NCBI GenBank assembly: GCA_020848745.1
Contig: JADLHM010000013.1
Coordinates: 5,238-69,237, forward strand
Direction of reading: 5' to 3'
DNA length: 64,000 nucleotides
DNA from: Deltaproteobacteria bacterium
Lineage (GTDB): Bacteria > Desulfobacterota > Binatia > UTPRO1
This document shows positions 5,724-60,576 of this stretch, piece by piece. The notes beneath the pieces were generated by a model, which made no database searches, was not told the origin of the DNA, and worked only from the letters and a program-made list of their open reading frames with translations. Within the stretch, counting starts at the first letter, position 1; the number at the start of each line of letters is the position of its first letter. Made by a program: the position numbers and the translations under genes.

Positions 5724-6608
5724 TCAATGCTGCCGCTGCTTCAGGAAGTCGACGATCGCGTTCGCCGCCGTCTCGGAGACCTCGTGTCGCAGGTGCGGCA
5801 TGCGAGGCTTCTTTTCCTTCAGCATGTGCCAGACGCGATCGGTGACGTAGGCCTGGTCGTGCGCCTCGAAGTACGCGGCGTCGAACCTGGCGGTCGGCTG
5901 CGGCTGGCCCGGAACCGCGACGACGTCGCCGCGACCGGCATCACCGTGGCAGTTGACGCAGTAGCGCGCGTAGACCTCGTATCCGCGCGACAGGATCTTC
6001 ACGTACGCGCCGACGGCCGCGGCGTCCTTCGTCGTGAGCTTCAGTGGCGGCGCATGCCGCTCGCCGACGAGCGCTCGGAGCCGGTCGTCGCTCAGATCGC
6101 GCTGGAACTCCGGATCCGAGAGGTCGTGTGAGGCCACCTTGTCGTTTCCGCCCGCCTGCAGCGGCGGCTTGCCGTAGATCCCATGGCACGAGGCGCACCG
6201 GTCGGCGTACACGTCGTGTCCGGGCTCGACCAGCGCCCAGTCGATCGTCGGCAGACGCCTGAGATGCGCTGCGACGACCTCGACGTCTCCCTCCCGCGCC
6301 TTCAGGGCCGCGGGGTCGAGGGCGAGGTCGAGCGAGCTCCCGCGCCGCACACGACGCGCGAGCTCGGCATTGGAGTACTTCGCGAGAAACCCGCTGCGCA
6401 AATCACGTGGCGGCTCCGGGAAGATGACGGCATCGGGACCGTCGCCCCGGCCGTGCAGGCCGTGGCATCGGGCGCAGTCGCGGTGGAAGAACCGCGCTCC
6501 GTTGCTCGTGTCGGCGTGCGCCGCCACGGCGAAGGCCCACACCACGACCATCACGAGCGCCCTCACGACTCGGGCGGCCCATGCCATCGATCGCCGAGAG
6601 GACGACAT
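5724..6608 (-). CDS. tri-haem c-type cytochrome (three class-I-like domains), secreted
   Basis: Trimmed to ATG 6608 (MSSSRRSMAWAARVVRALVMVVVWAFAVAAHA signal peptide). Three CXXCH motifs: CARCH, CASCH, CVNCH. Confidence 0.8.
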   Translation of the reverse strand: MSSSRRSMAWAARVVRALVMVVVWAFAVAAHADTSNGARFFHRDCARCHGLHGRGDGPDAVIFPEPPRDLRSGFLAKYSNAELARRVRRGSSLDLALDPAALKAREGDVEVVAAHLRRLPTIDWALVEPGHDVYADRCASCHGIYGKPPLQAGGNDKVASHDLSDPEFQRDLSDDRLRALVGERHAPPLKLTTKDAAAVGAYVKILSRGYEVYARYCVNCHGDAGRGDVVAVPGQPQPTARFDAAYFEAHDQAYVTDRVWHMLKEKKPRMPHLRHEVSETAANAIVDFLKQRQH

Positions 6609-6624
6609 AGCCGTCGTTCTATAC

Positions 6625-6667
6625 CTCCAGGCTGGAGAAACACCATCGCGATCGGCCCTCGCGATGG
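6625..6667. promoter_or_regulatory. two perfect palindromes in the divergent cytochrome intergenic region (candidate operators)
   Basis: CTCCAG-G-CTGGAG (6625-6637) and CCATCGCGA-N7-TCGCGATGG (6643-6667) lie between starts at 6608 (-) and 6754 (+). Confidence 0.3.
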
Positions 6668-6753
6668 AGCAGATTTCCGGGCCGGACCTTTGCCGACGCG
6701 AAGCGGACGTGCAACGGTTGACGCCTCGCGGGCGGATGCAAGATTGTGTCACC

Positions 6754-8769
6754 ATGCCCGCCGCGGTTCGCCGCACTCCCGGGTCGCTCGCCCCCGTGGT
6801 CATCGCCTGGCTCTTCGCGGCCGTCCTCGCGTTCCCCGGCAGCGTCGACAGCGCACCGGATCCCGGGCGCGGTCGAGCCGCCGACGAGAACGCGGCCGCG
6901 CCGGAGCCCGAAGAACAGGATTGCCTCTCGTGCCACAAGACCGTTGAAGAAGTCGACGACGTCGATCTCGTCGTCGACGAGTCGACGTGGCTCCGGACCG
7001 TCCACGGCGCCGCCCACGTAGCGTGCCTCGATTGCCACGCCGACGCCGACGGCGATCCGCATACCGGGGTGAAGGCGGTCACACGCTGCCGCGATTGCCA
7101 CGCGAAGTCCGTCGATCGCGTGCGCGCGAGCGTCCACACCGAGACCAACGGACCCATTCCGGCGAAGAAACACCCGCGGTGCAGCTCGTGCCACGGAAAG
7201 ATCCACGCGATGGCGGCCGCGACCGATCCGGCGTCGCCGGTACACCCCAAGCACCTGCCCGAGACGTGCGGCAAGTGTCACGCGGATCCGGGGCTCGCGG
7301 CCGAAGCCGGCGTGAAGCTCGTGCAGCCGATCGCGGCCTACAACGCGAGCGTCCACGCGAACGCCGTCGCCGCCGGAAAAGACGCCGCCACGTGCAGCTC
7401 CTGCCATGGCACCCACGCGATCCGTCGGAGCAGCGACGCTGACTCGCCGACGAATCGGAAGAACGTGCCGACCACGTGCGGCGCGTGCCATGCCGAGATC
7501 GCCGCCGCCTTCGCGACCAGCGTACACGGTCAAGCGGCCGCCGTCGGCATCCGCGAAGCGCCGGTGTGCACGGACTGCCACGGCGAGCACCGGATCCTCG
7601 GTCCCAGCGACCGGGGCTCGCCGGTATTCGCCAGCAGCGTGCCCAAGATGACGTGCGGGCGGTGCCACGGCGACGTGCGGTTGACCGAGAAGTTCAACCT
7701 CAAAGCAACGGCCGTAACGGCCTTCGAGGACAGCTTCCACGGACTCGCGGGCCGCGCCGGCAACCGCTCGGTCGCCAACTGCGCCTCGTGTCACGGCGTC
7801 CACGACATCCTGCAGTCGACGAATCCCCGTTCGCACGTCCACCCGGACAACCTGCCAGCGACGTGCGGCTCCTGTCACCAGGGGGCCGGAACGAGATTCG
7901 CGCTCGGCCCCGTGCACGTCACGAGCAGCGATCCCGGCACGACCCATCCCGTCGTCCACTGGGTTCGCCTCGCATACCTCTGGATCATTGGGCTCTCGAT
8001 CGGCGGCATGGTGCTCCACAACGTACTCGACTTGCGCCGCAAGGCGCTGCTCCCGACGCCGCGGCCGGTGATTCCGGTCGCCGCGCGACGGCGGCGGATG
8101 TCGCGCGGCTTCCGGATCGCGCATGCGCTGCTGTTCGGCAGCTTCTTCATCCTCGTGGCAACGGGCTTCGCGCTCACGTATCCGGAGGCATGGTGGGCGA
8201 CGCCGCTGCTCGCGCTGGAGCACCGATTCGCGTTCCGGGGGTGGCTACACCGCGGCGCGGCGATCGTGCTGCTCGTCAGCGCTGCATTCCACGTGGCGCA
8301 CCTCGTCGCCGACCCGCGGGCTCGCACCACCATCCGCCGCATGCGGCCGACGCTGCACGATCTCCGAGAGCTGCGTGAACGGATCGCCTGGTTCTTCGGC
8401 AGGAGGCCGATGCCGCGATCACCGGAGATCGGCTACGTCGAGAAGGTGGAGTATCTCGCCGTCGTTTGGGGCACGATCATCATGGCAGCAACCGGATTCG
8501 TGCTCTGGTTCTCGACGTGGTCCCTCGCGCATCTCCCCAAGTGGGTGACGGACGTCGCGACCACCATCCACTTCTACGAGGCCGTTCTCGCAACGCTGGC
8601 GATCCTCGTCTGGCACTTCTACTTCGTGTTCTTCGACCCGGTCGTCTATCCGATGGACAGTGCCTGGCTCACCGGCCGCGAAGCGCCCGGACGGACGCTC
8701 GAGCGGACGGCGACTCCCGCCGACGAGCCGGCGGCCGCCGCGCCGGTCGCGGACGAGCCGGGCGCCTGA
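6754..8769 (+). CDS. multihaem cytochrome c (11 CXXCH) fused to FdnI/HydC-type cytochrome b membrane domain (CbcL-like)
   Basis: Signal peptide MPAAVRRTPGSLAPVVIAWLFAAVLAFPGSVDSA. 11 motifs: CLSCH, CLDCH, CRDCH, CSSCH, CGKCH, CSSCH, CGACH, CTDCH, CGRCH, CASCH, CGSCH. The C-terminal ~270 aa has 5 TM helices with conserved His. Alternative ATG at 6736. Confidence 0.85.
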   Translation: MPAAVRRTPGSLAPVVIAWLFAAVLAFPGSVDSAPDPGRGRAADENAAAPEPEEQDCLSCHKTVEEVDDVDLVVDESTWLRTVHGAAHVACLDCHADADGDPHTGVKAVTRCRDCHAKSVDRVRASVHTETNGPIPAKKHPRCSSCHGKIHAMAAATDPASPVHPKHLPETCGKCHADPGLAAEAGVKLVQPIAAYNASVHANAVAAGKDAATCSSCHGTHAIRRSSDADSPTNRKNVPTTCGACHAEIAAAFATSVHGQAAAVGIREAPVCTDCHGEHRILGPSDRGSPVFASSVPKMTCGRCHGDVRLTEKFNLKATAVTAFEDSFHGLAGRAGNRSVANCASCHGVHDILQSTNPRSHVHPDNLPATCGSCHQGAGTRFALGPVHVTSSDPGTTHPVVHWVRLAYLWIIGLSIGGMVLHNVLDLRRKALLPTPRPVIPVAARRRRMSRGFRIAHALLFGSFFILVATGFALTYPEAWWATPLLALEHRFAFRGWLHRGAAIVLLVSAAFHVAHLVADPRARTTIRRMRPTLHDLRELRERIAWFFGRRPMPRSPEIGYVEKVEYLAVVWGTIIMAATGFVLWFSTWSLAHLPKWVTDVATTIHFYEAVLATLAILVWHFYFVFFDPVVYPMDSAWLTGREAPGRTLERTATPADEPAAAAPVADEPGA

Positions 8770-8787: not shown

Positions 8788-10077
8788 CTACTGCAGCTCG
8801 AAGCGCTCGCGCAGGAGCTTCAGCAGCGCGACGTTGTCGCTGTGGCCCGTCCTGTGGGCCGTGACGAAGCCGCGCAGCGGCCGGCCGAGCAGATAGAAAT
8901 CCCCCATGATGTCGAGGATCTTGTGGCGCGCGAACTCGTCGGGGAAGCGCAGCGGCGTGTTCACGATGCCGTTCTCGCCGATCAGGATACAGTTGTTGAG
9001 GCGTCCCCCGCTCGCGAGCCCCATCTTCTCGAGCGTCTCGATCTCGCGGAGGAATCCGAAGGTGCGCGCGGGCGCGATCTCGGCCTTGAAGCGTTCGCTG
9101 TCGGTGAACTGGAAGACGTGCTCCTGGCGCCCGACCGGCTGCGGATAGTCGAGAACGTAGCGCACCCCGAAGACGTCGGCGGGCTCGATACAGAGGTATT
9201 CGCCGCCGCCGTCGCGGTCGCCGATCTCGTAGCGGCGGTCGATGACGATCTCGTCGACGTAGCCGCCCTGCTCCTCGACCCCCGCGCTCTCGATGAGCCC
9301 GCAGAACTCCGCGGCCGAGCCGTCGAGGATCGGGATCTCGGCCTGCATCTTCACGAGCAGGTTCGTGATGCGGTAGCCGTGGAGCGCCGCCAGCAGGTGC
9401 TCGACGGTCTTCGCGACGATGCCGTTGTGGTAGAGCGTCGTCGCGTAGCCCGTCGAGTCGACGTACTCGATGCGGGCCGGGATCGTCGCCGCGTTCGAGA
9501 TGTTGCCGAAGACGATGCCGCTGCCCGGCGGCAACGGCTGCAGGATGAGGCCGGTGCGGACACCGGAGTGCAGCCCCTGTCCGTTCACGACCACGCTGCG
9601 CTGGATCGTGCGCTGGGTCCACGGCCACGGACGTGCGAGCAGGCGCCGCTCGAGCGCGACCGCGCCCGCCTCGTCGGCGGCGACCGCCTCTCCGTCGACG
9701 CTGCCGGCGATCGGCCGCGCCTCGAGCGCGCGGCCGACGACGTGCAGGAGCCCGTCGAGCGAGAACGGCTTCTCGATGAAATCGAAGGCGCCGAGCTTCG
9801 TCGCCGTGACGGCGGTCTCGATGTTGCCGTGGCCGGAGATCACGATGACGGGCGTCGACGGATGGGACTCGCGAATGTGTCGGAGGAGCTCGATGCCGTC
9901 CATGCCGGGCATCCAGATGTCGAGGATCACGAGACGCGGATGCTCACGCGCGATGAGCTCGAGCGCGCCGCCGCCGTCCTCCGCCTCCAGCACACGGTAG
10001 CCCTCGTCGGCGAGCACGCCGCGGACGCTGCTCCGGATCCCCGTCTCGTCGTCCACGATCAGTATGGTCTTGTCCAC
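8788..10077 (-). CDS. lpxC: response-regulator receiver domain fused to UDP-3-O-acyl-N-acetylglucosamine deacetylase
   Basis: GTG 10077 preceded by GGAGGA. REC motifs: ILIVDDE, VILDIWMPGMDG, VIVISGHG, FDFIEKPF. LpxC motifs: QRTIQRSVVVNGQGLHSG, TVEHLLAALHG, HKILDIMGDFYLLG, AHRTGHSDNVALL. Confidence 0.85.
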   Translation of the reverse strand: MDKTILIVDDETGIRSSVRGVLADEGYRVLEAEDGGGALELIAREHPRLVILDIWMPGMDGIELLRHIRESHPSTPVIVISGHGNIETAVTATKLGAFDFIEKPFSLDGLLHVVGRALEARPIAGSVDGEAVAADEAGAVALERRLLARPWPWTQRTIQRSVVVNGQGLHSGVRTGLILQPLPPGSGIVFGNISNAATIPARIEYVDSTGYATTLYHNGIVAKTVEHLLAALHGYRITNLLVKMQAEIPILDGSAAEFCGLIESAGVEEQGGYVDEIVIDRRYEIGDRDGGGEYLCIEPADVFGVRYVLDYPQPVGRQEHVFQFTDSERFKAEIAPARTFGFLREIETLEKMGLASGGRLNNCILIGENGIVNTPLRFPDEFARHKILDIMGDFYLLGRPLRGFVTAHRTGHSDNVALLKLLRERFELQ

Positions 10078-12398
10078 GATTCCTCCTCGTGCAGGACGAT
10101 CGGCTCGAGCGGCCCTTTCACGGGCAGCTCGACCACGAACCGACTCCCGCGCGGCTCGTTGTCCTTCACCCGCACGAAGCCCTGATGGTCCGCGACGATC
10201 GTCGATACGATGGCGAGACCGAGCCCGGTCCCGCCTTGCTTGGTGGAAAAGTACGGCTCGAAGAGCCGGCCGCGCTCCTCGGGCTTGATGCCGATGCCGG
10301 TATCCGCGACCTCGAGCGCGACGATGCCGTGCGCGCGGTGGAGGCGCGTGCGCACCTCGATGCGAGGCGGGGTGCCATTGGCGCGCGGGGCGCCGTCGCA
10401 AGCCGCGACGGCGTTGTCGAGCATGTTGATGAGCGCACGCTTGATGCCCTCGCGGTCGAGCGGCAGCCGCGGCAGGCTCGGGTCCGGGTCGAAGACGAAC
10501 TCGATGTGGCGATGGCCCTCGCGGAAGAGCACCATTGCCTCCTCGACGAGCGCGTTCAGATCCTCGGGCGTGTGCTCGCCGGCGGGCAGGCGCGCGAAGG
10601 TCGCGAACTCGTTCACCAGCGTCTTCAGCTCCTCGACCTGCCTGACGATGGTCCGGGTGCACTCCTCGAAGAGCGTGCCGTCCTCCTTCAAGCGCTCGGC
10701 GTAGCGCTTGTGGAGCCGCTGCGCCGAGAGCTGAATCGGCGTGAGCGGGTTCTTGATCTCGTGCGCGATGCGGCGCGCGACCTCACGCCACGCCTCCATG
10801 CGCTGCACCTTCACGATCTCGGTGACATCCTCGCAGAAGAGGAGCGCGCCGAGCGCCTGGCCAGCGGAGTCGCGGAGCATGGTGGCGGTGAGGACGAGCG
10901 TGAGCATGCGACCCCCCGCGAGGACCTTCATCTGTCGCTCGACGCGCCCGCCGACCGCCGCGAGCGACACGCCCGCGCGCAGCTCGGCGAGCGTTTCGCG
11001 CGCCGGCGCCAGGTCGGAGCGCGCGAACACGGCCATGTAGTCGCGGCCGATCATGGTCGCGCGGTCGATCACGAACAGACGCGCCGCGGCTTCGTTGAGG
11101 GTCGTGACGCGGCCGTCCGGATCGACGGCGACGACGCCGGCCGTGAGCTCGGCGAGGATGGTCTCCATGCTGCGGCGGCGCTGCTCGAGCTCCAGGTTGC
11201 TGCGCTCGAGATCGGCGGTCATCCGGTTGAACGACGCGACCAGCGTGCCGAACTCGTCGTCGGGCGCCACCTGCGTCGCGTCCCCGAGCCCGATGCGGTA
11301 CTGCCAGTTGCCCTGCGCGACTTCGCGCGTGCCCTCGGCGAGCTTCTGGATCGGCACCGTGATGCCTTTGGCGAGATAGAAGCCCATCCAGGTCGCGCAG
11401 AAGATCACGAGCAACGTCACCAGCACGAGCGTCACCACGTAGTTGCTGGTGATCGGCTGCTTCAGGATCTTGAGCTGCCGGTACTCCTGGAACGAGCGCG
11501 CGATGTCGGCGCTCTGCGTGGCGACGCTCTTCGGTACGAAGTGCTCGACGACGACCGCGCCCTCGACGCCGCCCGGTCCCGGGATCGGCACGGCGGCGCG
11601 GATCACGTCGCCCCGCCCGATCGACTGGATGCGGGTCTCGGCCCGACCTTCGAGCGCGGCCGTGAGAAGCGGCGCCGAAGGCGGCAACGCCGACTCGCCC
11701 GGCACCTCGTCGGCGCGCGCCATCGCGCGGACGTCGCGGTCGATCCCGAAGACCTGGACCGTCCCGACGTGATACTCGCGCTGCTTGTCGGCGACGAACT
11801 CCTGCAGCCGCTCGGCGCCGCCCGGCTTGAGGAGCCCGTCCTCCCGCACCCGGCCCGCGAGCTGCCGCGCGTGCACGAGCGCGTTCTCGGAAGCGTTCCG
11901 ATAGTACGCCTGCGCCACCTCGAGCGAGCCCGAAAGCGAATTCTCGACCTGGACGTTGAACCAGTTCTCGATCGAGCTCGTCATGAAACCGAGCGCGACC
12001 AGGAAGATCAGGATCGCGGGGAAGATCGAGACCGCGACGAACGCCAGCACGAGCCGCGTGCGAAGATGCGAGCCGAGCATCCGGCGCCGGCGCTCGAACA
12101 CGAGCTTCAGGAGATTCCGCGCCACCAGAAAGACCAGCAGCACGAGCAGGATGATGTTGAGGTTGATGAGGAGGAAGAAGATGACGTTGTTGCTCAACGA
12201 GCTGCCGTTCGAGAACTGCGGAAGCCGCGTCTCGAAGAACGCGAACAGCAGGACGGCCAGCGCGGCCGACAGGATGATGAGCCCCTCGCGCCGCCGCTGG
12301 CGCTCGGCCGGCGCCTCGACGGAAGTCGGCGGCTCGCCCGTGGCGTGCTGGCCGCTCGAGACCCGCGAGGCATGTCGGTCGGTGGTCGGGTGGCTCAT
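10059..12398 (-). CDS. NtrY-type sensor histidine kinase (multi-TM, HAMP, PAS, HisKA, HATPase_c)
   Basis: 779 aa. H-box RRIAHEIKNPLTPIQLSAQRL, N-box INMLDNAVAA, G-boxes VADTGIGI and GGTGLGLAIV. N-terminal TM block and HAMP as in NtrY. Confidence 0.85.
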   Translation of the reverse strand: MSHPTTDRHASRVSSGQHATGEPPTSVEAPAERQRRREGLIILSAALAVLLFAFFETRLPQFSNGSSLSNNVIFFLLINLNIILLVLLVFLVARNLLKLVFERRRRMLGSHLRTRLVLAFVAVSIFPAILIFLVALGFMTSSIENWFNVQVENSLSGSLEVAQAYYRNASENALVHARQLAGRVREDGLLKPGGAERLQEFVADKQREYHVGTVQVFGIDRDVRAMARADEVPGESALPPSAPLLTAALEGRAETRIQSIGRGDVIRAAVPIPGPGGVEGAVVVEHFVPKSVATQSADIARSFQEYRQLKILKQPITSNYVVTLVLVTLLVIFCATWMGFYLAKGITVPIQKLAEGTREVAQGNWQYRIGLGDATQVAPDDEFGTLVASFNRMTADLERSNLELEQRRRSMETILAELTAGVVAVDPDGRVTTLNEAAARLFVIDRATMIGRDYMAVFARSDLAPARETLAELRAGVSLAAVGGRVERQMKVLAGGRMLTLVLTATMLRDSAGQALGALLFCEDVTEIVKVQRMEAWREVARRIAHEIKNPLTPIQLSAQRLHKRYAERLKEDGTLFEECTRTIVRQVEELKTLVNEFATFARLPAGEHTPEDLNALVEEAMVLFREGHRHIEFVFDPDPSLPRLPLDREGIKRALINMLDNAVAACDGAPRANGTPPRIEVRTRLHRAHGIVALEVADTGIGIKPEERGRLFEPYFSTKQGGTGLGLAIVSTIVADHQGFVRVKDNEPRGSRFVVELPVKGPLEPIVLHEEESWTRPY

Positions 12399-12417: not shown

Positions 12418-12630
12418 TCAGCGCCGGAAAAGGTACGAAAGCAGCGACAGCAGGAGGCTCAGGAGGAGACACGTCGCGAGCGGCACGTAGACCGTGAGCC
12501 CACCCGAACGGAGGGTGAAGTCGCCGGGGAGCTTCCCGAGCCAGGGAATCCGGGGCGAGAACGACACGACGAGCCCCGCGACGACGAGCACGAGCCCGAA
12601 CAGGATGAGTGTGCGTCCCAAACCTCCCAT
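12418..12630 (-). CDS. DUF2905 family small membrane protein
   Basis: MGGLGRTLILFGLVLVVAGLVV..WLGKLPGDFTLRSGGLTVYVPLATCLLLSLLLSLL. ATG 12630 preferred over the TTG at 12645. Confidence 0.6.
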   Translation of the reverse strand: MGGLGRTLILFGLVLVVAGLVVSFSPRIPWLGKLPGDFTLRSGGLTVYVPLATCLLLSLLLSLLSYLFRR

Positions 12631-12730
12631 GGCTTGGACCGGCAAGGGGCGGATTCTAGAGCCGCTCCGGGGCCTTGTCTACCCAGACACGCTGCGTCAT
12701 TTTCGTTGCCTGTTCGCCTCCGGGGGCGGC

Positions 12731-34335: not shown

Positions 34336-35679
34336 GTGCTCCGACTCACCATCCTCCTCGCGACGATCGCCGCCGCCCTGATCGGGGTCGGTTGGCTGCT
34401 GCACCTGAATCCGGAGTCCGTAACCGTCCGCTTCAGCGCGACCCGGGAATGGACGGGACCTTTGCCGCTCGTGCTGCTCTCGGCGTTCCTCGCGGGCGCA
34501 GCGGTGACGTTCGTCGGGTCGCTCGTGCGCGCGAGCCGGACGGCCGTGAGCGGCTGGCGCGCCGAGCGCCTCGCGCGCCGGCAGCGCCGCCAGCAGGTGC
34601 GCAAGGAGCAGGGCCTCTCCTTCGCGTGGCTTGGCGAGACCGAGAAGGCGCGGACGTCGCTCGCGAAAGCGCTCCGCGACGGCCCCGACGACCTCGCGGC
34701 GTTCCTGATGTTCGCGCGCACGTACCTCGACGAAGGCGACTTCCGCGGCGCGCGCACGGTGCTCGAGGAAGGGCTCGATCGGCGCGGCCCCGATCCGAAG
34801 CTCCTTCTCTTCCTCGCCGAGGCGCAGCGCGGCGGCGGCGACGACGCGGCGGCGATCGAGGCCCTCGAGCGCGCGCGCCGCGCCGATCCCGCGAGCCCGC
34901 GCGTCCTGACCGCACTGCGCGACGCCTACACCGCGCTCGGCCGCTGGCGCGACGCCGGTCGGGTCCAGGAAGCGCTGCTGCTCGTCGCGCGCGACGCGGC
35001 GACGCGCGTCGAGAGCGAGCGCGCGCTCGTCGGCATGCGGTACCAGAGCGCGCTCGAAATCTCCGAGCCCGCGGCGCGCATCGCGGAGCTGCGCGCCGTC
35101 CTGCGCGCGCACCCCGACTTCGAGCCCGCTGCCGTGAGCCTCGGCGACGCCCTCCTCGCGGCCGACCAGCCGCGCCAGGCCGAGCGCGTCTGGCGGCGCG
35201 CGGTGCTCCGCGGCGGGCGCGGCGGCGCCCTCGAGCGGCTCGAGCGCCTGCTCGCCGGTGGACCGCGCGCGCACCGCCTCGACGTCTTCACACGCCGGCT
35301 CCTCCGCCGCCGCCCCGACGACGGCACCGCGCGCCTCTTTCGGGCGCGTCAGCTCATCCGCACCGGGCAGCTCGACGAGGCGGGTGCGGAGCTCACGCGC
35401 ATCGGTCCGCCCTGGAACGGGCTCGCCGGGTATCACGGGCTCCTCGCCGAGCTGCACGTACGGCGCGGCGCGCAGGAAGACGCCGTGCGCGCGTTCCGCC
35501 ACGCGCTCGCGGCCTCGGCGAGCGGCGTGTTCCGCTGCCAGGTCTGCGGCGCCGAGGCCGAGGAGTGGCGCGGCTACTGCGAGGGGTGTCGCAGCTGGGA
35601 CAGCTACCGCTCGAGCTACGAGGCCGCGGGCGCCACGCTACGGACGCCGAGCGGCGCGACGCTCCCGGCCGGACGCTGA
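34336..35679 (+). CDS. lapB: LapA/LapB-like lipopolysaccharide assembly regulator (DUF1049-type TM domain, TPR, C-terminal rubredoxin-like zinc finger)
   Basis: N-terminal 2-TM LapA-like segment, TPR-like repeats, and C-terminal FRCQVCGAEAEEWRGYCEGCRSWDSY matching the LapB CxxC..CxxC finger. Confidence 0.7.
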   Translation: MLRLTILLATIAAALIGVGWLLHLNPESVTVRFSATREWTGPLPLVLLSAFLAGAAVTFVGSLVRASRTAVSGWRAERLARRQRRQQVRKEQGLSFAWLGETEKARTSLAKALRDGPDDLAAFLMFARTYLDEGDFRGARTVLEEGLDRRGPDPKLLLFLAEAQRGGGDDAAAIEALERARRADPASPRVLTALRDAYTALGRWRDAGRVQEALLLVARDAATRVESERALVGMRYQSALEISEPAARIAELRAVLRAHPDFEPAAVSLGDALLAADQPRQAERVWRRAVLRGGRGGALERLERLLAGGPRAHRLDVFTRRLLRRRPDDGTARLFRARQLIRTGQLDEAGAELTRIGPPWNGLAGYHGLLAELHVRRGAQEDAVRAFRHALAASASGVFRCQVCGAEAEEWRGYCEGCRSWDSYRSSYEAAGATLRTPSGATLPAGR

Positions 35680-45019: not shown

Positions 45020-46294
45020 CTACTCACCCCAGCGCCGGAACACCAGACACGCGTTGGCGCCGCCGAAACCGAACGAGTTCGAGAGCGCGACGGTCGCGTC
45101 GGTGGCGCGCGCCTGGTTCGGAACGTAGTCGAGGTCGCAGGCGGGGTCCGGCTCCTCGTAGTTGATCGTGGGCGGGAGCCGGCCGCGCTCGAGCGCGAGC
45201 ATGGTGTAGATCGCCTCGATGCCGCCGGCGGCGCCGAGCGTGTGCCCGGTCATCGACTTGGTCGAGCTCACGGCGAGGCGATCGGCGTGCGCCCCGAAGA
45301 CCTTGCGGATCGCCTCGGTCTCGCTCGCGTCGTTGTACTCGGTGGAGGTGCCGTGGGCGTTGACGTAGCCGATCGCCTCGGGCGCGACCCCGGCGTCGGC
45401 GAGCGCCTGCTGCATGCAGCGCGCCGCGCCCTCGCCGCCCGGCGCCGGCGCGGTGATGTGGAACGCGTCGGCGTTGGCGCCGTAGCCGACGATCTCCCCG
45501 AGGATGCGGGCCGCGCGCGCGCGCGCGTGCGCCAGCGACTCGAGCACGAGGATGCCGGCTCCCTCCGCGATGACGAAACCGTCGCGACTGCGGTCGAACG
45601 GACGGCTCGCGCGTTCGGGCTCTTCGTTGCGGGTCGAGAGGGCGCGCATGGCGATGAAGCCGCCGAGGCCGAGGCCGCAGAGCGCGGCCTCCGCGCCGCC
45701 AGCGATCACCGCGTCCTGGTAGCCGTCGCGGATGTTGCGGAACGCCTCGCCGACGGCGTTCGCCCCCGACGCGCAGGCGCTCGTCGGCGTGTAGTTGATG
45801 CCGCGCGAGCCGAAGCGGATCGAGATCTGCCCGGGCGCCAAGTTCGCGATGACCTTCGCGACGAAGAACGGCGACACGCGCCGGAGGCGGCTCTCGAGGT
45901 ACAGCGTATGGAACTGCTCGATCGACTGCAGCCCGCCCATGCCGACGCCGACGATCGTGCCGACGCGGTCGGCTTCCTCAGGCGCGATCTTCCAGTCCGC
46001 CTGGTCCATCGCCATCTGCGCGGCGGCGACGGCGAACTGGATGAACGGATCCATCTTCTTGATCTCGCGCCGCTCGATCCAGTCCTCGGCGACGAAGTCG
46101 CGGACCTCGCCGGCGATGCGGGTCGGGAAGTCGGCACACTCGAAGCGGGTGATCGGGCCGATGCCGGAGCGCCCGGCCATGAGCGCCGTCCAGTTCTTCT
46201 CGACGCCGGTGCCGAGAGACGTGACGAGGCCCACGCCCGTCACAACGACCCGCCGCTCGTCGCCCTGTGCGCGATTCCCCACGAGCCGCGGCAT
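45020..46294 (-). CDS. fabF: beta-ketoacyl-ACP synthase II
   Basis: [14 protein letters not shown], active-site [35 protein letters not shown] 46294 follows GGAGG; alternative ATG at 46321. Confidence 0.92.
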
Positions 46295-46338
46295 GCTAGG
46301 AAGCACCTCCTGGGGAGTCAAGGTCGTGGAGATGCGCG

Positions 46339-46902
46339 GTGCGTGACGGACGCGAGACGACGATCGGCGGGTGTCGGCTCACCCTCGGGCGGGGTGACCT
46401 CACGCTCGCCGCCGTCGACGCGATCGTGAACGCGGCCAATCATTCCCTGCTCGGTGGGGACGGCGTCGACGGCGCGATCCATCGTAGCGGCGGTCCCGAG
46501 CTCCTCGACGCGTGCAAGCACATCCGCGCGACCCGATGGCCCGACGGCCTCCCGACCGGCGAGGCCGTGCTCACGACCGCCGGACGCCTCGTCGCGCGCC
46601 ACGTCATCCACACCGTCGGCCCGGTCTACAGCCGCAAGCCCGAGGTTCCGGGGCTGCTCGCGGCCTGCCACGCGAACAGCCTGGCGCTCGCGGCGTCGGC
46701 GGGAATCCGTACGATCGCCTTCCCCGCGATCTCGACCGGCGTCTACGGCTACCCGGTCGAGCTCGCGGCGCCGATCGCGCTCGGCGCGACCGCCGCGCAC
46801 CTCGAAGCGCATCCGGGAGCGCACGACGAGGTGCGCTTCGTCCTCTTCGACGCGGCGACACTCGCGGCCTTCGTCGCCGCGCTCGCGGCCCTCAGTAGGT
46901 AA
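46339..46902 (+). CDS. macro-domain protein (O-acetyl-ADP-ribose deacetylase-like)
   Basis: [43 protein letters not shown]. Confidence 0.88.
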
Positions 46903-47470
46903 CGGTCACCCCGGCGCAGAAGATGTTGGTGTTGAGCCCGGGGTTCACCTCGTCCTGACCCGCGTTCGAGATGTGGCGGAAGCGGTAGCCGGCCGTGACG
47001 CCGACCCGCTCGGTCACCGGGATCTGGGCGCCGATCGCGCCGTTCACCGAGAAGAGGACGCGCGAGCTCAGCGAGAAGTTCTTGAGGTCGTTGTACAGCA
47101 TCCCGACCCCGACCTCGGCGTACGGCTGCACCCAGGGTCGCACCCAGCGCCAGCGGAGATACGGCCCGCCACCGAGCTCCATGGCGCTGTTGGTCTCGTA
47201 GAAATGGGTGAAGATGCCTTCGATGCCGAGGCTCACGGCCCCCGGCGTCTCGCTCTCGCTCACCCAGACCATCCGGCCGAGGCGCGGCATGAACGTCACC
47301 GCCTGGGAGTTGTTGGTGACGCCGAAGAGGTAGCCCGCCTGAAGCCCGACGTCCCAGTCGCCGAAGACGGGCGGGTCGGCGGCGCGCACGGCGGTCGCGC
47401 CCGCGGCGAGGAGCAGGATGGCGGCGAAGAAACGGAGGATGATCACGGGCATCGGCATGGCGACGCTCAT
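46892..47470 (-). CDS. pagL: PagL-like lipid A 3-O-deacylase (outer-membrane beta-barrel)
   Basis: Trimmed to ATG 47470, with a signal peptide. C-terminal GYRFRHISNAG reproduces the PagL catalytic H-x-S-N-A-G motif. PYAEVGVGM.. parallels PagL strand order. Confidence 0.75.
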   Translation of the reverse strand: MSVAMPMPVIILRFFAAILLLAAGATAVRAADPPVFGDWDVGLQAGYLFGVTNNSQAVTFMPRLGRMVWVSESETPGAVSLGIEGIFTHFYETNSAMELGGGPYLRWRWVRPWVQPYAEVGVGMLYNDLKNFSLSSRVLFSVNGAIGAQIPVTERVGVTAGYRFRHISNAGQDEVNPGLNTNIFCAGVTVTY

Positions 47471-47478
47471 TGCCGCGT

Positions 47479-47874
47479 CTACTGCTCCTTGGTCGCGCGC
47501 AGCACGGGTTGGCAGTCGTCGGCGCACGACGCGTTCGGGTCTGGCGCCGCGGCGGGACGATGGAGCACCGCCTTGCTGGGCGCGATCCGGATGCGCCGTT
47601 TCCCTTCGCCCGGCGCGACGGCCGCCGTGCCGTCGACGATCAAGCTGTACCCGCCCGGTTCGGCGGCCGGATAGAGGAGCGCTACCGCCGGCCGGCTCGC
47701 CGCGTTTTGCGCGCTCCGAGCGCCGACCTCGGCGATGAGCAGGTCGCCCTCCCATCCGAGCGCGACGTGCACCGCGTGCGGCCGGGCATCGTCCGTGACG
47801 GTCAGGAGGTAGGCGCCGCCCACACGCTCGGCGATCGCCGCGCGCAGGCCCTCGAGAGCAACGGGAATGGTCAT
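47479..47874 (-). CDS. pyridoxamine 5'-phosphate oxidase-like split-barrel protein
   Basis: Trimmed to ATG 47874. GGAYLLTVTDDARPHAVHV..SRPAVALLY resembles PPOX-class small proteins. Weak assignment. Confidence 0.45.
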   Translation of the reverse strand: MTIPVALEGLRAAIAERVGGAYLLTVTDDARPHAVHVALGWEGDLLIAEVGARSAQNAASRPAVALLYPAAEPGGYSLIVDGTAAVAPGEGKRRIRIAPSKAVLHRPAAAPDPNASCADDCQPVLRATKEQ

Positions 47875-48030
47875 GGCTCCGGCGTAGCGCGCCCCCCGGG
47901 GTTTTGCGAGGCCGGGAACACGCACCACCGCGGTTCCCCCGCCTGGGAACGAGAGCGCCCGACCGGGCGCCGTTTTCCCGGCCGTCCGGCGGCGGCGCGC
48001 CTGGCACGCCCCCTGCTGCCGCTTCGAGGG

Positions 48031-48879
48031 GTGACGAGCGCCGCCGTCATCGGTCACCGCCCGACCCGCCCCGAGCTCGCCGCCGCGAAGCTCCTCCTCG
48101 AGCCGTGGCGCATGCTGACCTCGCCCTGCTTCTACGGGGTGAGCCGGGTGCCGCGCGACCGTCCGGTCCTTCTCGTCGGCAATCACACGCTGATGGGGCT
48201 CCTCGACGTCCCGCTCATGGTCCTCGGGCTGCACGAGCGGACGGGGATCGTTCCCCGCTCGCTCGGCGACCACGTACACTTCCAGGTGCCGCTCTGGCGC
48301 GACCTCCTGACCCGCTTCGGCGCCGTCGACGGCACGCGCGCGAGCTGCGAGGCGCTCATGCGAGCCGGCGAGTCGATCCTCGTCTTTCCCGGCGGCGCGC
48401 GGGAAGTCTTCAAGCACAAGGGCGCGCGCTACCGCCTCCTCTGGAAGGACCGGGTCGGCTTCGCGGTGCTCGCGATCGCGCACGGCTACCCGATCGTGCC
48501 GTTCTCGGCCGTCGGCGCCGAGGAGTGCTACGACATCCTCGTCGACAGCGACGACCTCCGACGGACGCCGCTCGGAACCCTCCTCGACTGGCTGACGCCC
48601 CGCGCCGACGAGCTACCGCCGCTCGTGAACGGGCTCGGGCTCCTGCCGCGGCCGCAGCGCTTCTACTTCCGCTTCGAGACGCCGATCGAGACGACGCCCT
48701 GGGCCGGACGGAGCGCCGACCGCGACGCGTGCCTCGAGCTCCGCGCCGTCGTAGCGGCCGCGGTCGAGCGCGGCATCACGGCGCTCCGCCGGACGCGGCG
48801 CCGCGACCCCGAGCGCGCGCTCGGCCTCAGGATCGCGCGCGAGCTCCGCGGCAAGGGACCAGGCCGCCGCCGGCGATGA
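48031..48879 (+). CDS. PlsC-family lysophospholipid acyltransferase
   Basis: Acyltransferase motif VGNHTLMGLLD, then VFPGGAREV. GTG 48031 is a provisional start. Confidence 0.7.
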   Translation: MTSAAVIGHRPTRPELAAAKLLLEPWRMLTSPCFYGVSRVPRDRPVLLVGNHTLMGLLDVPLMVLGLHERTGIVPRSLGDHVHFQVPLWRDLLTRFGAVDGTRASCEALMRAGESILVFPGGAREVFKHKGARYRLLWKDRVGFAVLAIAHGYPIVPFSAVGAEECYDILVDSDDLRRTPLGTLLDWLTPRADELPPLVNGLGLLPRPQRFYFRFETPIETTPWAGRSADRDACLELRAVVAAAVERGITALRRTRRRDPERALGLRIARELRGKGPGRRRR

Positions 48880-48894: not shown

Positions 48895-51800
48895 TCACCG
48901 ACCTCCCTTGCACACCTCGCTCTGCCCGCCGCTCTTGGCCGCGCACGGCAGCGTGGCGGCGAAGCAGTCGTCGCCGACCCGCACCAGCGTCGTCCCCTCG
49001 GGCGCCGCCGAGCCCGTGGCGTCGATGCCCGCGACCGACGCCGTCACCTTGAAGCGGCGGCCGTCCTTGCTCGTCACCCGCACGCTCAATGTTCCGCCCC
49101 CGGCCGCCGGGCCGCGGTACTTGAAGCCGTGGCGGATCGGCGGGAGACCGGCCGCGACGGTCGCGTCCGCGACGGTTGCCGACCCCGCGAGCCGGAGCTC
49201 GAACGGCTCCGTCTCGAAGTCGAGGGCGTTTCCGGCGAGCACGAACGTGCCCCGCATACGCAGGCTGTCGGTGCCCGCGTTCGCGCGGTTCTTGAGACGC
49301 GTCGATTGGAGATCGAGCGTCCAGACGCCGGCGTCGCAACCCGCCGGCGTGAGCCCGGCGGGCACGCCGGAGCCGAGCGCGCCGGTCCGTTGCCGGTCGT
49401 GACGGAAGCCCTGCCAGCGCACTGCGCGCGCCGACGCGGCGCCGGGCGCGTCCCACACGTAGAGGAATCCCTCACGGCTCGCGGTCGCGACCTCGAGCAA
49501 GCCGTCGCCGTCGAGGTCGCCCGCGACCGGGATCGGGATCATCCAGCCGTTGGTGAACTTCGGCCAGCCGACCGGCTGAGCGCCGAGGTGGTTCACGGCG
49601 TGCACGAAGCCGCCGCCGCTTCCCTGCACGACCTCCGGCACGCCGTCGTCGTCGAGGTCGAAAACCGCCGGGTTCCCGAAGAACATCATGTCCTCGATGA
49701 TGCGCGGGAAGGTCGCGACCATGTGACCCGTCGCCGTCCGCCACGCCGAGAGCTGATGGTCGCCCGGCTCCTGCCGGCCAGGCGCTTGCTGGTCGACGAA
49801 CTTCGTCGTGCCGATCGTGCCGGCTATCACCTCGAACCGCCCATCGGAGTCGAGGTCGGCCAGGCTCGGGCTCCCGAGGAGCGCGAGGCTGATCGGAAAG
49901 TCCGTCGACTCCGCCTGCAGCGGACGTGCCAGGCTCACGTCGTAGTCGAGCGTGACGTGCGCGCCGTTCGAGGCGATGCCGTAGTAGGACGAGCCGTCGC
50001 CGCGCAGGACGTAAACCGGCCCGTTGTTGCCCTGCACGACGACCTCGGCGATGCCGTCGCCATCGACGTCGCCGAGCACCGCGCCCTGGGTGACGCCGTG
50101 CGCGACCGTGGGCAGCAGGTCCTCGCTGAAGAGCGCGATCTTCACCGGCCAGCCCGGCAGATACGGCCCCGCCGGATTGCCGGCGACGCGCGGACTGAGA
50201 CTCCCCTCGTGGTCGATCGCGTAGAGCCGGCCGTTCACCGGATCGAGCCCGGCGACGCCCGCGAAGAAGGAGAGCTCCACGTTGGCGTCCTCGCCGCGCA
50301 CGTACTCCTCGTTCGTGCCCTGCACGATCTCGAGGAAGCCGTCGCCGTCGATGTCGCCGATCGCGGGCGCGGCGACGATCTTGGTGCCGCGCGAGCCGCG
50401 CGGCTGGCCGCCGACCAGGTCCCAGGCGACCTTGCCGGTCATCGGATCGACGGTCGTGACGGTGCGATCCACCATCAGGATCGGGAAGCCGGGTTGCGGC
50501 GTGCCGTCGGCGCGCCACACGTACAGGTGGCGGTCCGAGGCGCCGATCACGATCTCGAGCGTCCCGTCGCGGTCGAGATCGGCGAGCGCAGGCGTCGCGA
50601 GGAAGCCGGGATCGAGGCGGTTCGCCTCGTCGCGGATCGCCGGAGCGGAGAACGCCGCCGTCGTGCTCACCGGAAAGCCGGCGCGCCGCGTACCGTCGGC
50701 GGCGAACACGTAGAGCTTCCCTTGGGTCGAGGCGACCACCACCTCGAGCGCGCCGTCGCGGTCGAGGTCGCCGACCGCAGCCGAGCCGAGGATCGACTCG
50801 CGCACGGCGCTGCTCACCGCGCCGCTCGTGAAGCCCGCCGAGCCGGTGTGCAGCACGTCGAGGTCGGTCGTGGCGGGCCAGCCCTGCAGGTCGCTGCCGT
50901 CGCCGCGGATCGCGTGCACCTCGCCCGCGGCGGTCGCGAGCACCACGTCGAGGGTGCCGTCGCCGTCGAGGTCCGCGAGCGCCGGGGAGCTGTCGCCCGA
51001 CGCGTGCAAGACGCGCGGGAAGCCGGGGTGGAGATCGGGATCGTGGAACACCGCCACGGCGCGCGTGTCCTCGCCCACGTTGCCGAGGTCGTCGACCACC
51101 CTGAGGCGCAGCGTCACGTTGTAGACTTCGTCGAACCGGTCGCGATCGGCGACCGGCAGCGTGACCGCATCGAACGCGCAGTCCGCCGCGACCGCCGCGA
51201 TGGCCCACGTCCCGAGGATCGCCTCGTCGATCGGCGCCGCGGGCGTGCCCGTCGCGATCAGGTGGCCCGCCCGCGCGTACTCGCTCGCGACCGGGTCGAC
51301 GCCGCAGCCGTACTCGAGCGTGTAGGTGTAGGCGTTGGCGCGGCGGTGCGCGGCGGTCGAGCCGGTGATCGTCACCATCGGCGTCGCCGTCGGATCGAGC
51401 GTGTGGAACCAGCCGGGCGAGGCGAGCTCGGCCTCGGGCGGGATCGTCGTCGCCGAGAGCGCCCGCACCGCCCGGTCGGCGTTCACGCGGCCGTAGCCGA
51501 AGTACTTGTCCCGGCCGGGATGGGTCGGGAAGCGCGTCGACACGAGGTCCGAGAGGAAGCCGAACTTCACCGACGGCGACGTCGAGAGCGCCAGGTTGCC
51601 GCTGAAGTCGATGTCGTCGGCGGTCGCACCGAGAATCTGCTTCACCTCGTTGGCGGAAAGCGCCGTGCCGGTCACGGGATGGTTCGCGAGCAGGCCCGCG
51701 TCGACGAGGTTCCGCGCCCGCGACACGATCAGCGCCGCGATGCCGGCGCCGCGCCCGGTCGCCTCCGACGAGCACGAGTTCGACGGCACCGAGACGTGCA

Positions 51801-52896
51801 CGTTGTGCGCGCCGTAGTTCGTGCAGCCGTTCAGGAGGAGATACGTGTCGTTCTGGACGAAGGTCCCGTCCTCGGCGCGGATCGAGTTCACCGGGATCGT
51901 GTGCTCGTAGTTCGACGGCCAGTTGTGGTGGTAGGACTCCTCGTCCGCCGCCGACGCGATCACCGGCACGCCGCGCGCGTAGGCGTAGTCGATCGCGTCC
52001 TGACCGAACGCGGTATGGTCGAGCGCGCCGTTCGCCTCCTGGATCACGGCGGCGCCGCTGTCGACGGCGAAGACGACGCCGCGCGCGAAGTCGTTCACCT
52101 CCGAGACGAAGCTGTCGCTCACCTTGATCGGGATGAAGGTCGCGTTCGGCGCGGTGCCGACGCCGCCGCCGTTCGCCGCCTCGGCGGTCGAGTCCTCGGC
52201 CTCACCGGTGCCGTGCCCGTAGTGCACGTCGTCGTAGGGATCGTTGTCGTCTTGATGGAAATCCCAGCCCGCGATGTCGTCGACGTAACCGTTCGCGTCG
52301 GCGTCGGTGCCGTCGGAGAAGGCGCGGAGCAGATCCTGCGGATCGACGATGCCGTTGCCGTTCGCGTCGACGACGCGCGAGTCCCCGGCATGCGTGCCGT
52401 CGGCGCGGTAGTCGCGGACGTCGAAGACGCCGTCCTCGTTGCGGTCGTATCCGTTGCTCGTCGACTCCGGGAGCGGCAGCTCCGCCGCGTGCAACCGCAC
52501 CTTCGTCGCGAGGTCGTTCATCGCGCCCCCGTCGCTCCAGTCGAGGCCCGAGTCGAGGATCGCGATCACGACGTCGGGGCGGCCGGTCGTCACCTGCCAC
52601 GCCTTGTCGACGCTCGGTCCGCGCACCCCGAAGAGCTCCTGCGCGGTCGCCGGCACGGCGGGGTCGACGAGGCTCGAGAAGCGGAAGTTGTTCGGATCGA
52701 GGTCGGACGGCACCGTCGGCGGGACGGTCGTCGGCAAGAAGAGGTAGGAGGCGAAGTCGGTCGGGTCGGTGCAGCTCGCGGCGAGCGGGCCGCCGCACTT
52801 CGGGTAGGGGAACTCGGCGCGCGCGTCGAGCGGCGCGAGCAAGACCGCGACGAGGAGCGCTGAACGGCTGAGGGAACGGTTCGGCATCGGGGGCAC
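48895..52896 (-). CDS. secreted S8 subtilisin-like peptidase fused to an FG-GAP beta-propeller
   Basis: Signal peptide. Catalytic triad contexts VVIAILDSGLD, HGTGEA, SSEATGRGAG. Eight DxDxDG repeats (DLDGDGTLDV, DLDRDGALEV, DLDRDGTLEI, DIDGDGFLEI, DVDGDGIAEV, DLDSDGRFEV, DLDDDGVPEV, DLDGDGLLEV). Confidence 0.8.
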   Translation of the reverse strand: MPPMPNRSLSRSALLVAVLLAPLDARAEFPYPKCGGPLAASCTDPTDFASYLFLPTTVPPTVPSDLDPNNFRFSSLVDPAVPATAQELFGVRGPSVDKAWQVTTGRPDVVIAILDSGLDWSDGGAMNDLATKVRLHAAELPLPESTSNGYDRNEDGVFDVRDYRADGTHAGDSRVVDANGNGIVDPQDLLRAFSDGTDADANGYVDDIAGWDFHQDDNDPYDDVHYGHGTGEAEDSTAEAANGGGVGTAPNATFIPIKVSDSFVSEVNDFARGVVFAVDSGAAVIQEANGALDHTAFGQDAIDYAYARGVPVIASAADEESYHHNWPSNYEHTIPVNSIRAEDGTFVQNDTYLLLNGCTNYGAHNVHVSVPSNSCSSEATGRGAGIAALIVSRARNLVDAGLLANHPVTGTALSANEVKQILGATADDIDFSGNLALSTSPSVKFGFLSDLVSTRFPTHPGRDKYFGYGRVNADRAVRALSATTIPPEAELASPGWFHTLDPTATPMVTITGSTAAHRRANAYTYTLEYGCGVDPVASEYARAGHLIATGTPAAPIDEAILGTWAIAAVAADCAFDAVTLPVADRDRFDEVYNVTLRLRVVDDLGNVGEDTRAVAVFHDPDLHPGFPRVLHASGDSSPALADLDGDGTLDVVLATAAGEVHAIRGDGSDLQGWPATTDLDVLHTGSAGFTSGAVSSAVRESILGSAAVGDLDRDGALEVVVASTQGKLYVFAADGTRRAGFPVSTTAAFSAPAIRDEANRLDPGFLATPALADLDRDGTLEIVIGASDRHLYVWRADGTPQPGFPILMVDRTVTTVDPMTGKVAWDLVGGQPRGSRGTKIVAAPAIGDIDGDGFLEIVQGTNEEYVRGEDANVELSFFAGVAGLDPVNGRLYAIDHEGSLSPRVAGNPAGPYLPGWPVKIALFSEDLLPTVAHGVTQGAVLGDVDGDGIAEVVVQGNNGPVYVLRGDGSSYYGIASNGAHVTLDYDVSLARPLQAESTDFPISLALLGSPSLADLDSDGRFEVIAGTIGTTKFVDQQAPGRQEPGDHQLSAWRTATGHMVATFPRIIEDMMFFGNPAVFDLDDDGVPEVVQGSGGGFVHAVNHLGAQPVGWPKFTNGWMIPIPVAGDLDGDGLLEVATASREGFLYVWDAPGAASARAVRWQGFRHDRQRTGALGSGVPAGLTPAGCDAGVWTLDLQSTRLKNRANAGTDSLRMRGTFVLAGNALDFETEPFELRLAGSATVADATVAAGLPPIRHGFKYRGPAAGGGTLSVRVTSKDGRRFKVTASVAGIDATGSAAPEGTTLVRVGDDCFAATLPCAAKSGGQSEVCKGGR

Positions 52897-53115
52897 CTCG
52901 CTTGGTCGACGGCCGCGCGAAGGACGCGGAACGCGGGACTCGACGTGTAGCGCCGCGTGAAGTTGGCTGTAAAGCGATTTCGTCGGCGGGCACGCCGTCC
53001 TGTCGCACCCCGCCCCAACGGCGCGCGGCGAGCGTCCGGCGGCGGACGCCGGCCCGAGCCTGGCGGCGCCCGGGCGGCTGCGCTACGACGGCGCGGACCG
53101 CGAGCCCGCACGCGC

Positions 53116-60567: not shown

Positions 60568-60576
60568 GAACCGCGG

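Follow-up and report, generated by a model that had tools for sequence, protein, structure and literature searches.

The locus described here raises the question of whether the committed step in making lipid A can be placed under the direct control of a two-component system through a receiver (REC) domain covalently joined to the enzyme itself. It lies in a 64,000-nucleotide (nt) stretch of DNA (hereafter, the window) from a Deltaproteobacteria bacterium of the uncultured Binatia (GenBank assembly GCA_020848745.1; contig JADLHM010000013.1, positions 5,238 to 69,237), in which a single gene encodes a receiver followed by the deacetylase LpxC and overlaps the gene for a sensor histidine kinase. 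LpxC catalyzes the essential, flux-controlling step of lipopolysaccharide (LPS) synthesis and is a major antibiotic target. Its regulation is known mainly in enterobacteria, where it involves FtsH, LapB, and YejM, and is elsewhere described as "still emerging" (PMC12444477). An earlier inspection of the letters and translations alone (the sequence-only reading) had proposed phosphorelay control of LpxC at this locus, and we followed it up with profile searches, structure prediction, and comparative genomics. Our best explanation, to which we assign a probability of roughly 0.65, is that the kinase acts through Asp53 of the receiver on LpxC activity and that the protein is the reduced end state of a series of fusions between a regulator and LpxC.

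Domain architecture of the fusion protein

The reading frame of the fusion gene opens, as the sequence-only reading had noted, with a GTG at position 10077, and a GGAGGA (10086-10081) ends 3 nt before it (the features of the locus are collected in Table 1). That reading had further anticipated PF00072 and PF03331 in one chain of 429 amino acids (aa), and Pfam searches recovered both. The receiver matched Response_reg (PF00072) with 115.8 bits (E = 1.4 × 10−33; profile positions 1 to 109 of 111), and the AlphaFold model gives it the (beta-alpha)5 fold, with five strand-helix units at a predicted local distance difference test (pLDDT) score of ~76 to 94. Its site residues D9, D10, S81, and K103 and the phospho-acceptor D53 are all in place, consistent with the proposal of an apparently functional receiver of the NtrC/NtrX type. 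The affinity to NtrX was likewise recovered: among PDB structures, the NtrX receiver of Brucella scores highest (4d6x, 120 bits; 5m7n, 118 bits), and the top NCBIfam match of the receiver is NtrX (NF051870; 147.8 bits, residues 4 to 121). The receiver alone accounts for the latter match, and the fusion falls far below the model's cut-off of 600 bits. It contains neither an AAA+ nor a helix-turn-helix (HTH) domain and, having no AAA+ module with Walker A/B or GAFTGA motifs, is not a sigma54 activator of the NtrC family.

The C-terminal part is a full-length LpxC. It matched PF03331 with 274.3 bits (cut-off, 27; E = 1.5 × 10−81; profile positions 1 to 266 of 268), exceeded the cut-off of the lpxC equivalog model TIGR00325 (239.6 versus 187.25 bits), and aligned end to end with the LpxC structures of Pseudomonas aeruginosa, Aquifex aeolicus, and Escherichia coli. 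Alignment to P. aeruginosa LpxC identified the zinc ligands H227, H385, and D389 and the catalytic residues E226, H412, T339, K386, and D393, which correspond to H79, H238, and D242 and to E78, H265, T191, K239, and D246 in E. coli numbering, and the motifs TVEH, ARTFGF, HKILDxxGD, and GHSDN are all present. Thus, the metal and catalytic residues that had been called intact are so, and neither a truncated or inactivated LpxC domain nor a missing acceptor Asp, either of which would have told against the proposal, is apparent from the alignments. The LpxC-FabZ model (NF009667) matched only over the LpxC part (210.6 bits; cut-off, 465). Because the fusion stops 7 residues past the LpxC domain, compared with ~30 residues in E. 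coli LpxC, the C-terminal FtsH degron of the E. coli type is absent.

Between the two domains lies the Ala-rich linker of the sequence-only reading, here delimited to residues 114 to 154. The AlphaFold model of the whole protein (mean pLDDT, 86; predicted template modeling score, 0.78) shows two well-folded domains joined by a stretch in which residues 122 to 147 have a pLDDT below 50 and are predicted to be disordered, and across 116 homologues the mean conservation of the linker is 0.42, versus 0.80 for the receiver and 0.82 for LpxC. The domains are therefore joined by a nonconserved and, as predicted, flexible tether of ~30 residues. None of the PDB chains among the matches covered both halves of the protein.

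The kinase and a putative transcription unit

The gene immediately upstream encodes a kinase that was said to have the NtrY architecture and to overlap the fusion gene by 19 nt; reading of the sequence gave exactly this overlap, and Pfam recovered the expected domains. NtrY_N (PF19312) was matched in part (30.3 bits; cut-off, 23.2; positions 9 to 170 of 291), and HAMP (PF00672), PAS (PF00989), HisKA (PF00512), and HATPase_c (PF02518) all exceeded their cut-offs. The overlap of the kinase stop with the fusion start suggests that the two genes are translationally coupled. The association extends beyond the window: 15 related loci have an NtrY-like kinase gene directly upstream of their fusion gene, and this arrangement is seen in Binatia, Syntrophobacter(aceae), and Thermodesulfovibrionia and in loci encoding the longer form of the fusion described below.

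A DUF2905 gene precedes the kinase gene, as it does in the related Binatia loci L001 and L002, and the gene order yebC, ruvC, ruvA, ruvB, DUF2905, kinase, fusion is the same in the window and on a 6.99-Mb contig that carries a homologue. In the gap after ruvB we found one sigma70-type site, against 0.3 expected from shuffles, in a genome with 71% G+C. Because this candidate promoter sits just upstream of DUF2905, it suggests a three-gene transcription unit comprising DUF2905, the kinase, and the fusion. A pattern search for a sigma54-type promoter upstream of the kinase operon in the window found none.

Table 1. Positions of the receiver-LpxC locus and of other envelope-related genes in the window
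Feature	Position	Strand	Details
REC-LpxC fusion gene	8788..10077	-	One uninterrupted frame, 429 codons plus stop
Receiver (REC) domain	9739..10065	-	Residues 5-113; D9/D10, D53, S81, F100, K103; Asp53 codon 9919-9921
Linker	9616..9738	-	Residues 114-154; helix alpha5 ends here and is followed by an Ala/Gly/Pro-rich segment, predicted disordered, that varies in length and sequence
LpxC deacetylase domain	8812..9615	-	Residues 155-422; 7 residues after domain
NtrY-type sensor histidine kinase, 779 aa	10059..12398	-	N-terminal membrane/NtrY_N, HAMP, PAS, HisKA (H-box AHEIKNPLTPIQ), HATPase_c
Kinase/fusion overlap, 19 nt	10059..10077	-	Kinase TGA 10061-10059, fusion GTG 10077
DUF2905 small membrane protein	12418..12645	-	PF11146, 69.5 bits; end 20 nt from kinase start
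Candidate sigma70-type promoter TAGACA-17 nt-TAGAAT	12653..12681	-	10/12 matches, by consensus match only; gap after ruvB, upstream of DUF2905
LapA domain, tetratricopeptide (TPR) repeats, and LapB-type zinc ribbon in a single open reading frame	34336-35679	+	Zn_ribbon_LapB 24.4 bits, just below cut-off of 25.7
PagL-like lipid A 3-O-deacylase	~46892-47450	-	PF09411, 66.7 bits
BamD/YfiO outer-membrane assembly lipoprotein	60568-61518	+	Fits a diderm envelope

Phyletic spread of the fusion

The sequence-only reading had considered that a chimeric join in the assembly might have created the fusion. That faulty assembly or gene calling linked lpxC to a receiver gene of separate origin is extremely improbable given what the homology searches recovered. 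All of the 120 best homologues of the window protein (62 to 96% identical, 420 to 445 aa) contain both domains; their sources are assemblies at NCBI, JGI, ENA, and Logan, in which some lie on contigs of 0.4 to 7 Mb, and those with names are "Candidatus Binatia" or "Deltaproteobacteria" metagenome-assembled genomes (MAGs). Both domains were likewise present in the 120 best homologues of an Acidobacteriota fusion, which represent at least 120 clusters at 90% identity. There are thus more than 240 listed homologues of 420 to 450 aa from independent projects, on contigs of up to 7 Mb, with the same organization; the frame in the window is unbroken, and the linker offers no in-frame start codon from which a complete LpxC could be produced. 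The independent assemblies exclude the chimeric join.

A profile-free HMMER scan of 1.84 billion cluster representatives recovered dozens of fusion-bearing clusters at 50% identity. In a scan of GTDB with one genome per species, from which the best 80 of at least 600 stretches were kept, the fusion occurred in MAGs of Binatia/Binataceae, Syntrophobacter/Syntrophobacteraceae, Desulfomonile, Desulfocapsaceae, Thermodesulfovibrionia, Nitrospina/Nitrospinota, Thermoanaerobaculia, Holophagae, and Terriglobia, and Entotheonellia were also found among the names of fusion cluster members. The architecture is not rare: the databases contain hundreds of such proteins, which belong to at least six lineages (Binatia, Acidobacteriota, Thermodesulfobacteriota, Nitrospinota, Nitrospirota, and Entotheonellia) and are labeled plainly as LpxC or, by JGI, as NtrX. 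No cultured host was found among the best 120 homologues of the Acidobacteriota fusion, all of which come from metagenome assemblies, nor any cultured strain among the fusion-bearing loci in the matches kept from the GTDB scan.

Three architectures and their conservation

Proteins that combine an NtrX-like receiver with an intact LpxC occur in three architectures. The long form (650 to 750 aa) comprises the receiver, a Sigma54_activat AAA+ domain, an AAA lid, a Fis-type HTH, and LpxC; the intermediate form (~490 to 510 aa) comprises the receiver, HTH, and LpxC; and the short form (420 to 460 aa), to which the window protein belongs, comprises the receiver and LpxC. Conservation was assessed across 37 full-length proteins, each representing a cluster at 50% identity. 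Of these, 35 retain the phospho-acceptor Asp, 36 the Lys, and all 37 the Ser/Thr, and LpxC residues E78, H79, H238, K239, D242, D246, and H265 are invariant, with T191 kept in 36 of the 37. Because these residues are retained so widely, both halves are under selection across phyla. The intervening module has fared differently: all 15 aligned long forms have another residue in place of the Walker B Glu and lack the GAFTGA loop. The transcription machinery had thus already decayed while the receiver and LpxC stayed, and the AAA+ domains of the fused long forms can hardly activate sigma54.

Neighbor-joining (NJ) trees of the LpxC domain pair the intermediate form P0131 with the long form P0132, and the short form P0141 with the long forms P0128 and P0158, each at a bootstrap of 100/100. 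These two separate pairings of reduced with long forms indicate that the AAA+ module was lost more than once. We do not claim a specific long-form ancestor for the window lineage, the placement of which shifted between trees. A small and very divergent group of receiver-LpxC proteins (P0190, P0192, and P0197), 34 to 36% identical to the window protein and off the main fused group, may represent an independent fusion. In a 3.9-Mb genome (locus L003, 7135-12133), a DUF4390 gene and an NtrY-like kinase gene are followed, with an 8-nt overlap, by the gene for a 710-aa REC-AAA+-HTH-LpxC protein, and a LapA-domain gene, lolA, rseP, and ftsH lie within 10 kb of this long-form fusion.

Unfused clusters and the probable origin of the fusion

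The GTDB scan also recovered at least 10 loci (L035, L036, L038, L040, L041, L042, L045, L047, L049, and L070, from Desulfobacterota and Acidobacteriota genomes) in which a stand-alone lpxC is followed on the same strand by genes for an NtrY-like kinase and then a sigma54 activator. Their kinases are 36 to 49% identical to the window kinase, in the sensor and catalytic halves alike, and the receivers of their activators are 50 to 63% identical to that of the window protein; fused loci of other phyla are no more and no less similar to the window by these measures. The unfused regulators are true sigma54 activators, with GAFTGA in 8 of 10 and intact Walker A and Walker B (LFLDE-type) motifs. When two search patterns were combined, 6 of the 10 loci showed an element of the -24/-12 type (TGGCA-N6-7-T[TC]GC) at a distance of 40 to 80 nt ahead of lpxC; the second pattern alone gave 4 of 10, versus 4% of control windows. 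Such a dedicated connection has experimental precedent in Desulfovibrio vulgaris, where lpxC is the single mapped target of the NtrC-family regulator DVU2934, and in Syntrophobacter fumaroxidans lpxC adjoins an operon orthologous to that of DVU2934 (PMC3333781).

The window protein thus has the look of the final, reduced member of a series: an lpxC regulator was fused to LpxC, and its transcriptional parts were then lost. Every stage of this series exists among the loci that we recovered. The order of the steps, as we infer it, would begin with lpxC beside genes for an NtrY-like kinase and a sigma54 activator controlling it; the regulator would then have been fused to LpxC, with decay of the AAA+ domain, followed by loss of the AAA+ domain and, finally, of the HTH, leaving only the receiver and LpxC. 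The sequence-only reading had held that the AAA+/HTH output of an NtrX-like partner was replaced by LpxC. The output parts are indeed absent, but fusion followed by loss describes the change better than replacement, since REC-AAA+-HTH-LpxC and REC-HTH-LpxC relatives exist.

Proposed mode of action

Phosphorylation-dependent control of LpxC is the function that we infer as most likely from the architecture, the retained residues, and the adjacent kinase. In this scheme, the cotranscribed NtrY-type membrane kinase would sense an envelope, periplasmic, or redox signal and transfer phosphate to Asp53, and the state of the receiver would set the amount of LpxC activity in the cell. Because the linker is predicted to be floppy and is not conserved, docking or dimerization is favored over the transmission of a signal through a rigid helix, which the model makes unlikely. 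By analogy with CheB, the receiver would most likely dock on and undock from the catalytic domain reversibly or else drive dimerization, and phosphorylation would activate LpxC by relieving inhibition. The predicted rise in activity is the weakest step of the scheme; we favor it because the kinase/activator pair of the unfused systems appears to switch lpxC transcription on.

A different use of the same parts would be that the receiver leaves catalysis unchanged and is a phosphorylation-dependent degron or adaptor-binding module, so that the signal would set the half-life of LpxC in the manner of FtsH/LapB control. Proteolysis controls the level of LpxC in E. coli, and Lon possibly does so in alphaproteobacteria (PMC12444477), the fusion would need a different handle given that it lacks the tail used as the FtsH degron in E. 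coli, RssB-type regulators are among the best receiver matches, and the window itself encodes a LapA/LapB-like protein. Nevertheless, 24 kb separate the latter gene from the fusion, other loci show no linkage between the two, and a flexible tether with strict conservation of both domains suits an intramolecular mechanism equally well or better; we consider control through stability unlikely.

Several observations weigh against phosphorylation-dependent control. Two of the conservation representatives, P0141 (Asp to Asn) and P0147 (Asp to Ser, with Lys to Gln as well), have lost the acceptor Asp; because of this loss, at least some lineages appear to operate without phosphorylation, and the two proteins may be phosphorylation-independent pseudo-receiver variants. 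Many members, namely, the Acidobacteriota short forms and Nitrospinota long forms, are orphans with no kinase gene within 6 kb, and a partner kinase is therefore not universal; beside the orphan Acidobacteriota fusions we found neither lipid A genes nor a kinase gene, and their neighborhoods are unrelated. Fused LpxC domains stand apart from stand-alone ones in the NJ trees, at a bootstrap of only 40/100, and a separate fused cluster would also fit a specialized paralogue beside a housekeeping lpxC. Finally, the loss of NtrYX raises lpxC mRNA in alphaproteobacteria (PMC7240162), which, set against the activation implied by the unfused sigma54 systems, makes the direction of the effect uncertain.

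The orphans and the two proteins without an acceptor Asp would be explained if the receiver were vestigial, a leftover serving merely in folding or dimerization, with the kinase signaling to another regulator. This is improbable. Of the 37 representatives, 35 to 37 retain the Asp, acidic pair, Ser/Thr, and Lys, although degradation or loss has struck the AAA+ and HTH domains repeatedly. In the window, moreover, the fusion gene overlaps that of the kinase, and no other NtrX-like regulator is encoded nearby.

The separate grouping of the fused domains bears on whether the protein is instead an accessory isozyme, with an ordinary stand-alone lpxC for housekeeping and the fusion as a conditional, signal-dependent deacetylase, or one with shifted substrate preference, that tunes rather than gates the pathway. 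Fused LpxCs of several phyla group together and not with the stand-alone LpxCs that those phyla also have, a pattern typical of paralogues or of modules that spread horizontally, and both forms occur within Syntrophobacteraceae, Nitrospirota, and Acidobacteriota, but in different genomes. The low bootstrap blunts this argument and also keeps us from claiming a single origin of the fused clade. Further, the fusion exceeds the equivalog cut-off with invariant catalytic residues, a short fusion is found on a 1.09-Mb record titled "chromosome" (L015), and no second lpxC was found within the window or any retrieved locus. The two seemingly stand-alone close relatives that we checked dissolved on inspection. 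P0156 (292 aa, 61% identical) comes from L002, which has the Binatia gene order with numerous genes broken, ruvB and the kinase gene being split, and is a frameshifted fusion; a candidate second LpxC at L016 (4416-4694) is a decayed C-terminal third, with the HK motif changed to CR, that we regard as a pseudogene remnant. The latter fragment lies ~1 kb downstream of an intact receiver-LpxC gene in a Thermoanaerobaculia MAG. On balance, an accessory role is somewhat unlikely. A tentative extension of phosphorylation-dependent control, which we consider possible without favoring it, is that Binatia and many Acidobacteriota, Nitrospinota, and Thermodesulfobacteriota have the fusion as their sole LpxC, in which role it would stand in for FtsH/LapB proteolysis, and that the family records the stepwise fusion of a transcription factor to the product of its target, stripped down to a posttranslational switch.

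Comparison with known systems

The closest relatives of the signaling parts are NtrY/NtrX of Brucella, Rhodobacter sphaeroides, and Caulobacter crescentus. The window kinase shares the NtrY architecture, the receiver is closest to that of Brucella NtrX, and the long-form relatives, which JGI names NtrX, have every part of NtrX, with an AAA+ domain that likewise lacks GAFTGA. In R. sphaeroides and C. crescentus, both lpxC mRNA and the amount of LPS are under NtrYX control (PMC7240162; PMC12444477). However, NtrX is a DNA-binding protein with a regulon of dozens of genes and an indirect effect on lpxC, whereas the window receiver is covalently joined to LpxC and has no AAA+ or HTH domain. DVU2931/DVU2934 of D. 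vulgaris and the unfused clusters share with the fusion locus a two-component system dedicated to lpxC but differ in exerting transcriptional control through a functional sigma54 activator, with LpxC as a separate protein.

In layout, with a receiver at the N terminus that a flexible linker connects to an enzyme whose activity is expected to depend on phosphorylation, the fusion resembles CheB, PleD/WspR, RpfG, and RssB, of which CheB provides the best mechanistic analogy; unlike in these proteins, a zinc amidase from an essential pathway of biosynthesis forms the output, and not a signaling or second-messenger enzyme. E. coli LpxC, controlled by FtsH/LapB/YejM, with variants in P. aeruginosa and Neisseria, is the same enzyme with the same committed step as the control point, and a LapB-like protein is present in the window as well, but the fusion lacks the degron tail, and the proposed control is His-Asp phosphotransfer to a fused domain. 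LpxC-FabZ is also a natural fusion of LpxC with a second domain; there the partner is a C-terminal metabolic enzyme, whereas the window protein has an N-terminal signaling domain and no FabZ.

The suspicion that no receiver-LpxC enzyme had been characterized held up in the full-text literature that we searched, outside which most subscription journals lie: no description of such a protein was found. A 2025 review of lipid A regulation covers proteolysis, MurA, Ght, and transcription under NtrYX/ChvGI, with no fusion and no phosphorylation of LpxC, and the words "fused" and "fusion" are absent from it (PMC12444477). We regard the protein as an uncharacterized response regulator whose output domain is new and central to metabolism. 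If the proposed mechanism is correct, direct two-component control would be a third kind of LpxC regulation beside proteolysis and transcription. As a "Rosetta stone," the fusion lends independent support to the indirect experimental link between NtrYX-type systems and lpxC, and it yields a simple hypothesis, open to testing in vitro with two proteins and Asp53 variants. The graded series would be a clear example of rewiring from transcriptional to posttranslational control, in a large family from several environmentally abundant, poorly cultured phyla.

Other genes in the window

The LapB-like and PagL-like proteins mentioned in the sequence-only reading were both found, the zinc ribbon of the former scoring just under its cut-off. 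The lapA and lapB genes are separate in E. coli. A LapB-type partner of LpxC may therefore coexist with the receiver fusion. Because the window encodes PagL, BamD, and the LapA/LapB-like protein together with PlsX and a beta-ketoacyl synthase (KAS) enzyme, the organism is a diderm that makes lipid A. The PagL gene is flanked by genes for a PlsC-type acyltransferase and a beta-ketoacyl synthase (47470-48879 (+), 45020-46378 (-)).

Convergent with the fusion gene is a gene (6370-8769 (+)) for a multihaem cytochrome c with c7/c3-type motifs fused to a cytochrome b561-like membrane domain, and a tri-haem cytochrome c gene (5724-6599 (-)) adjoins it on the opposite strand. Elsewhere in the window, a 1,395-aa open reading frame (48895-53082 (-)) combines a subtilase (S8) domain with FG-GAP repeats.

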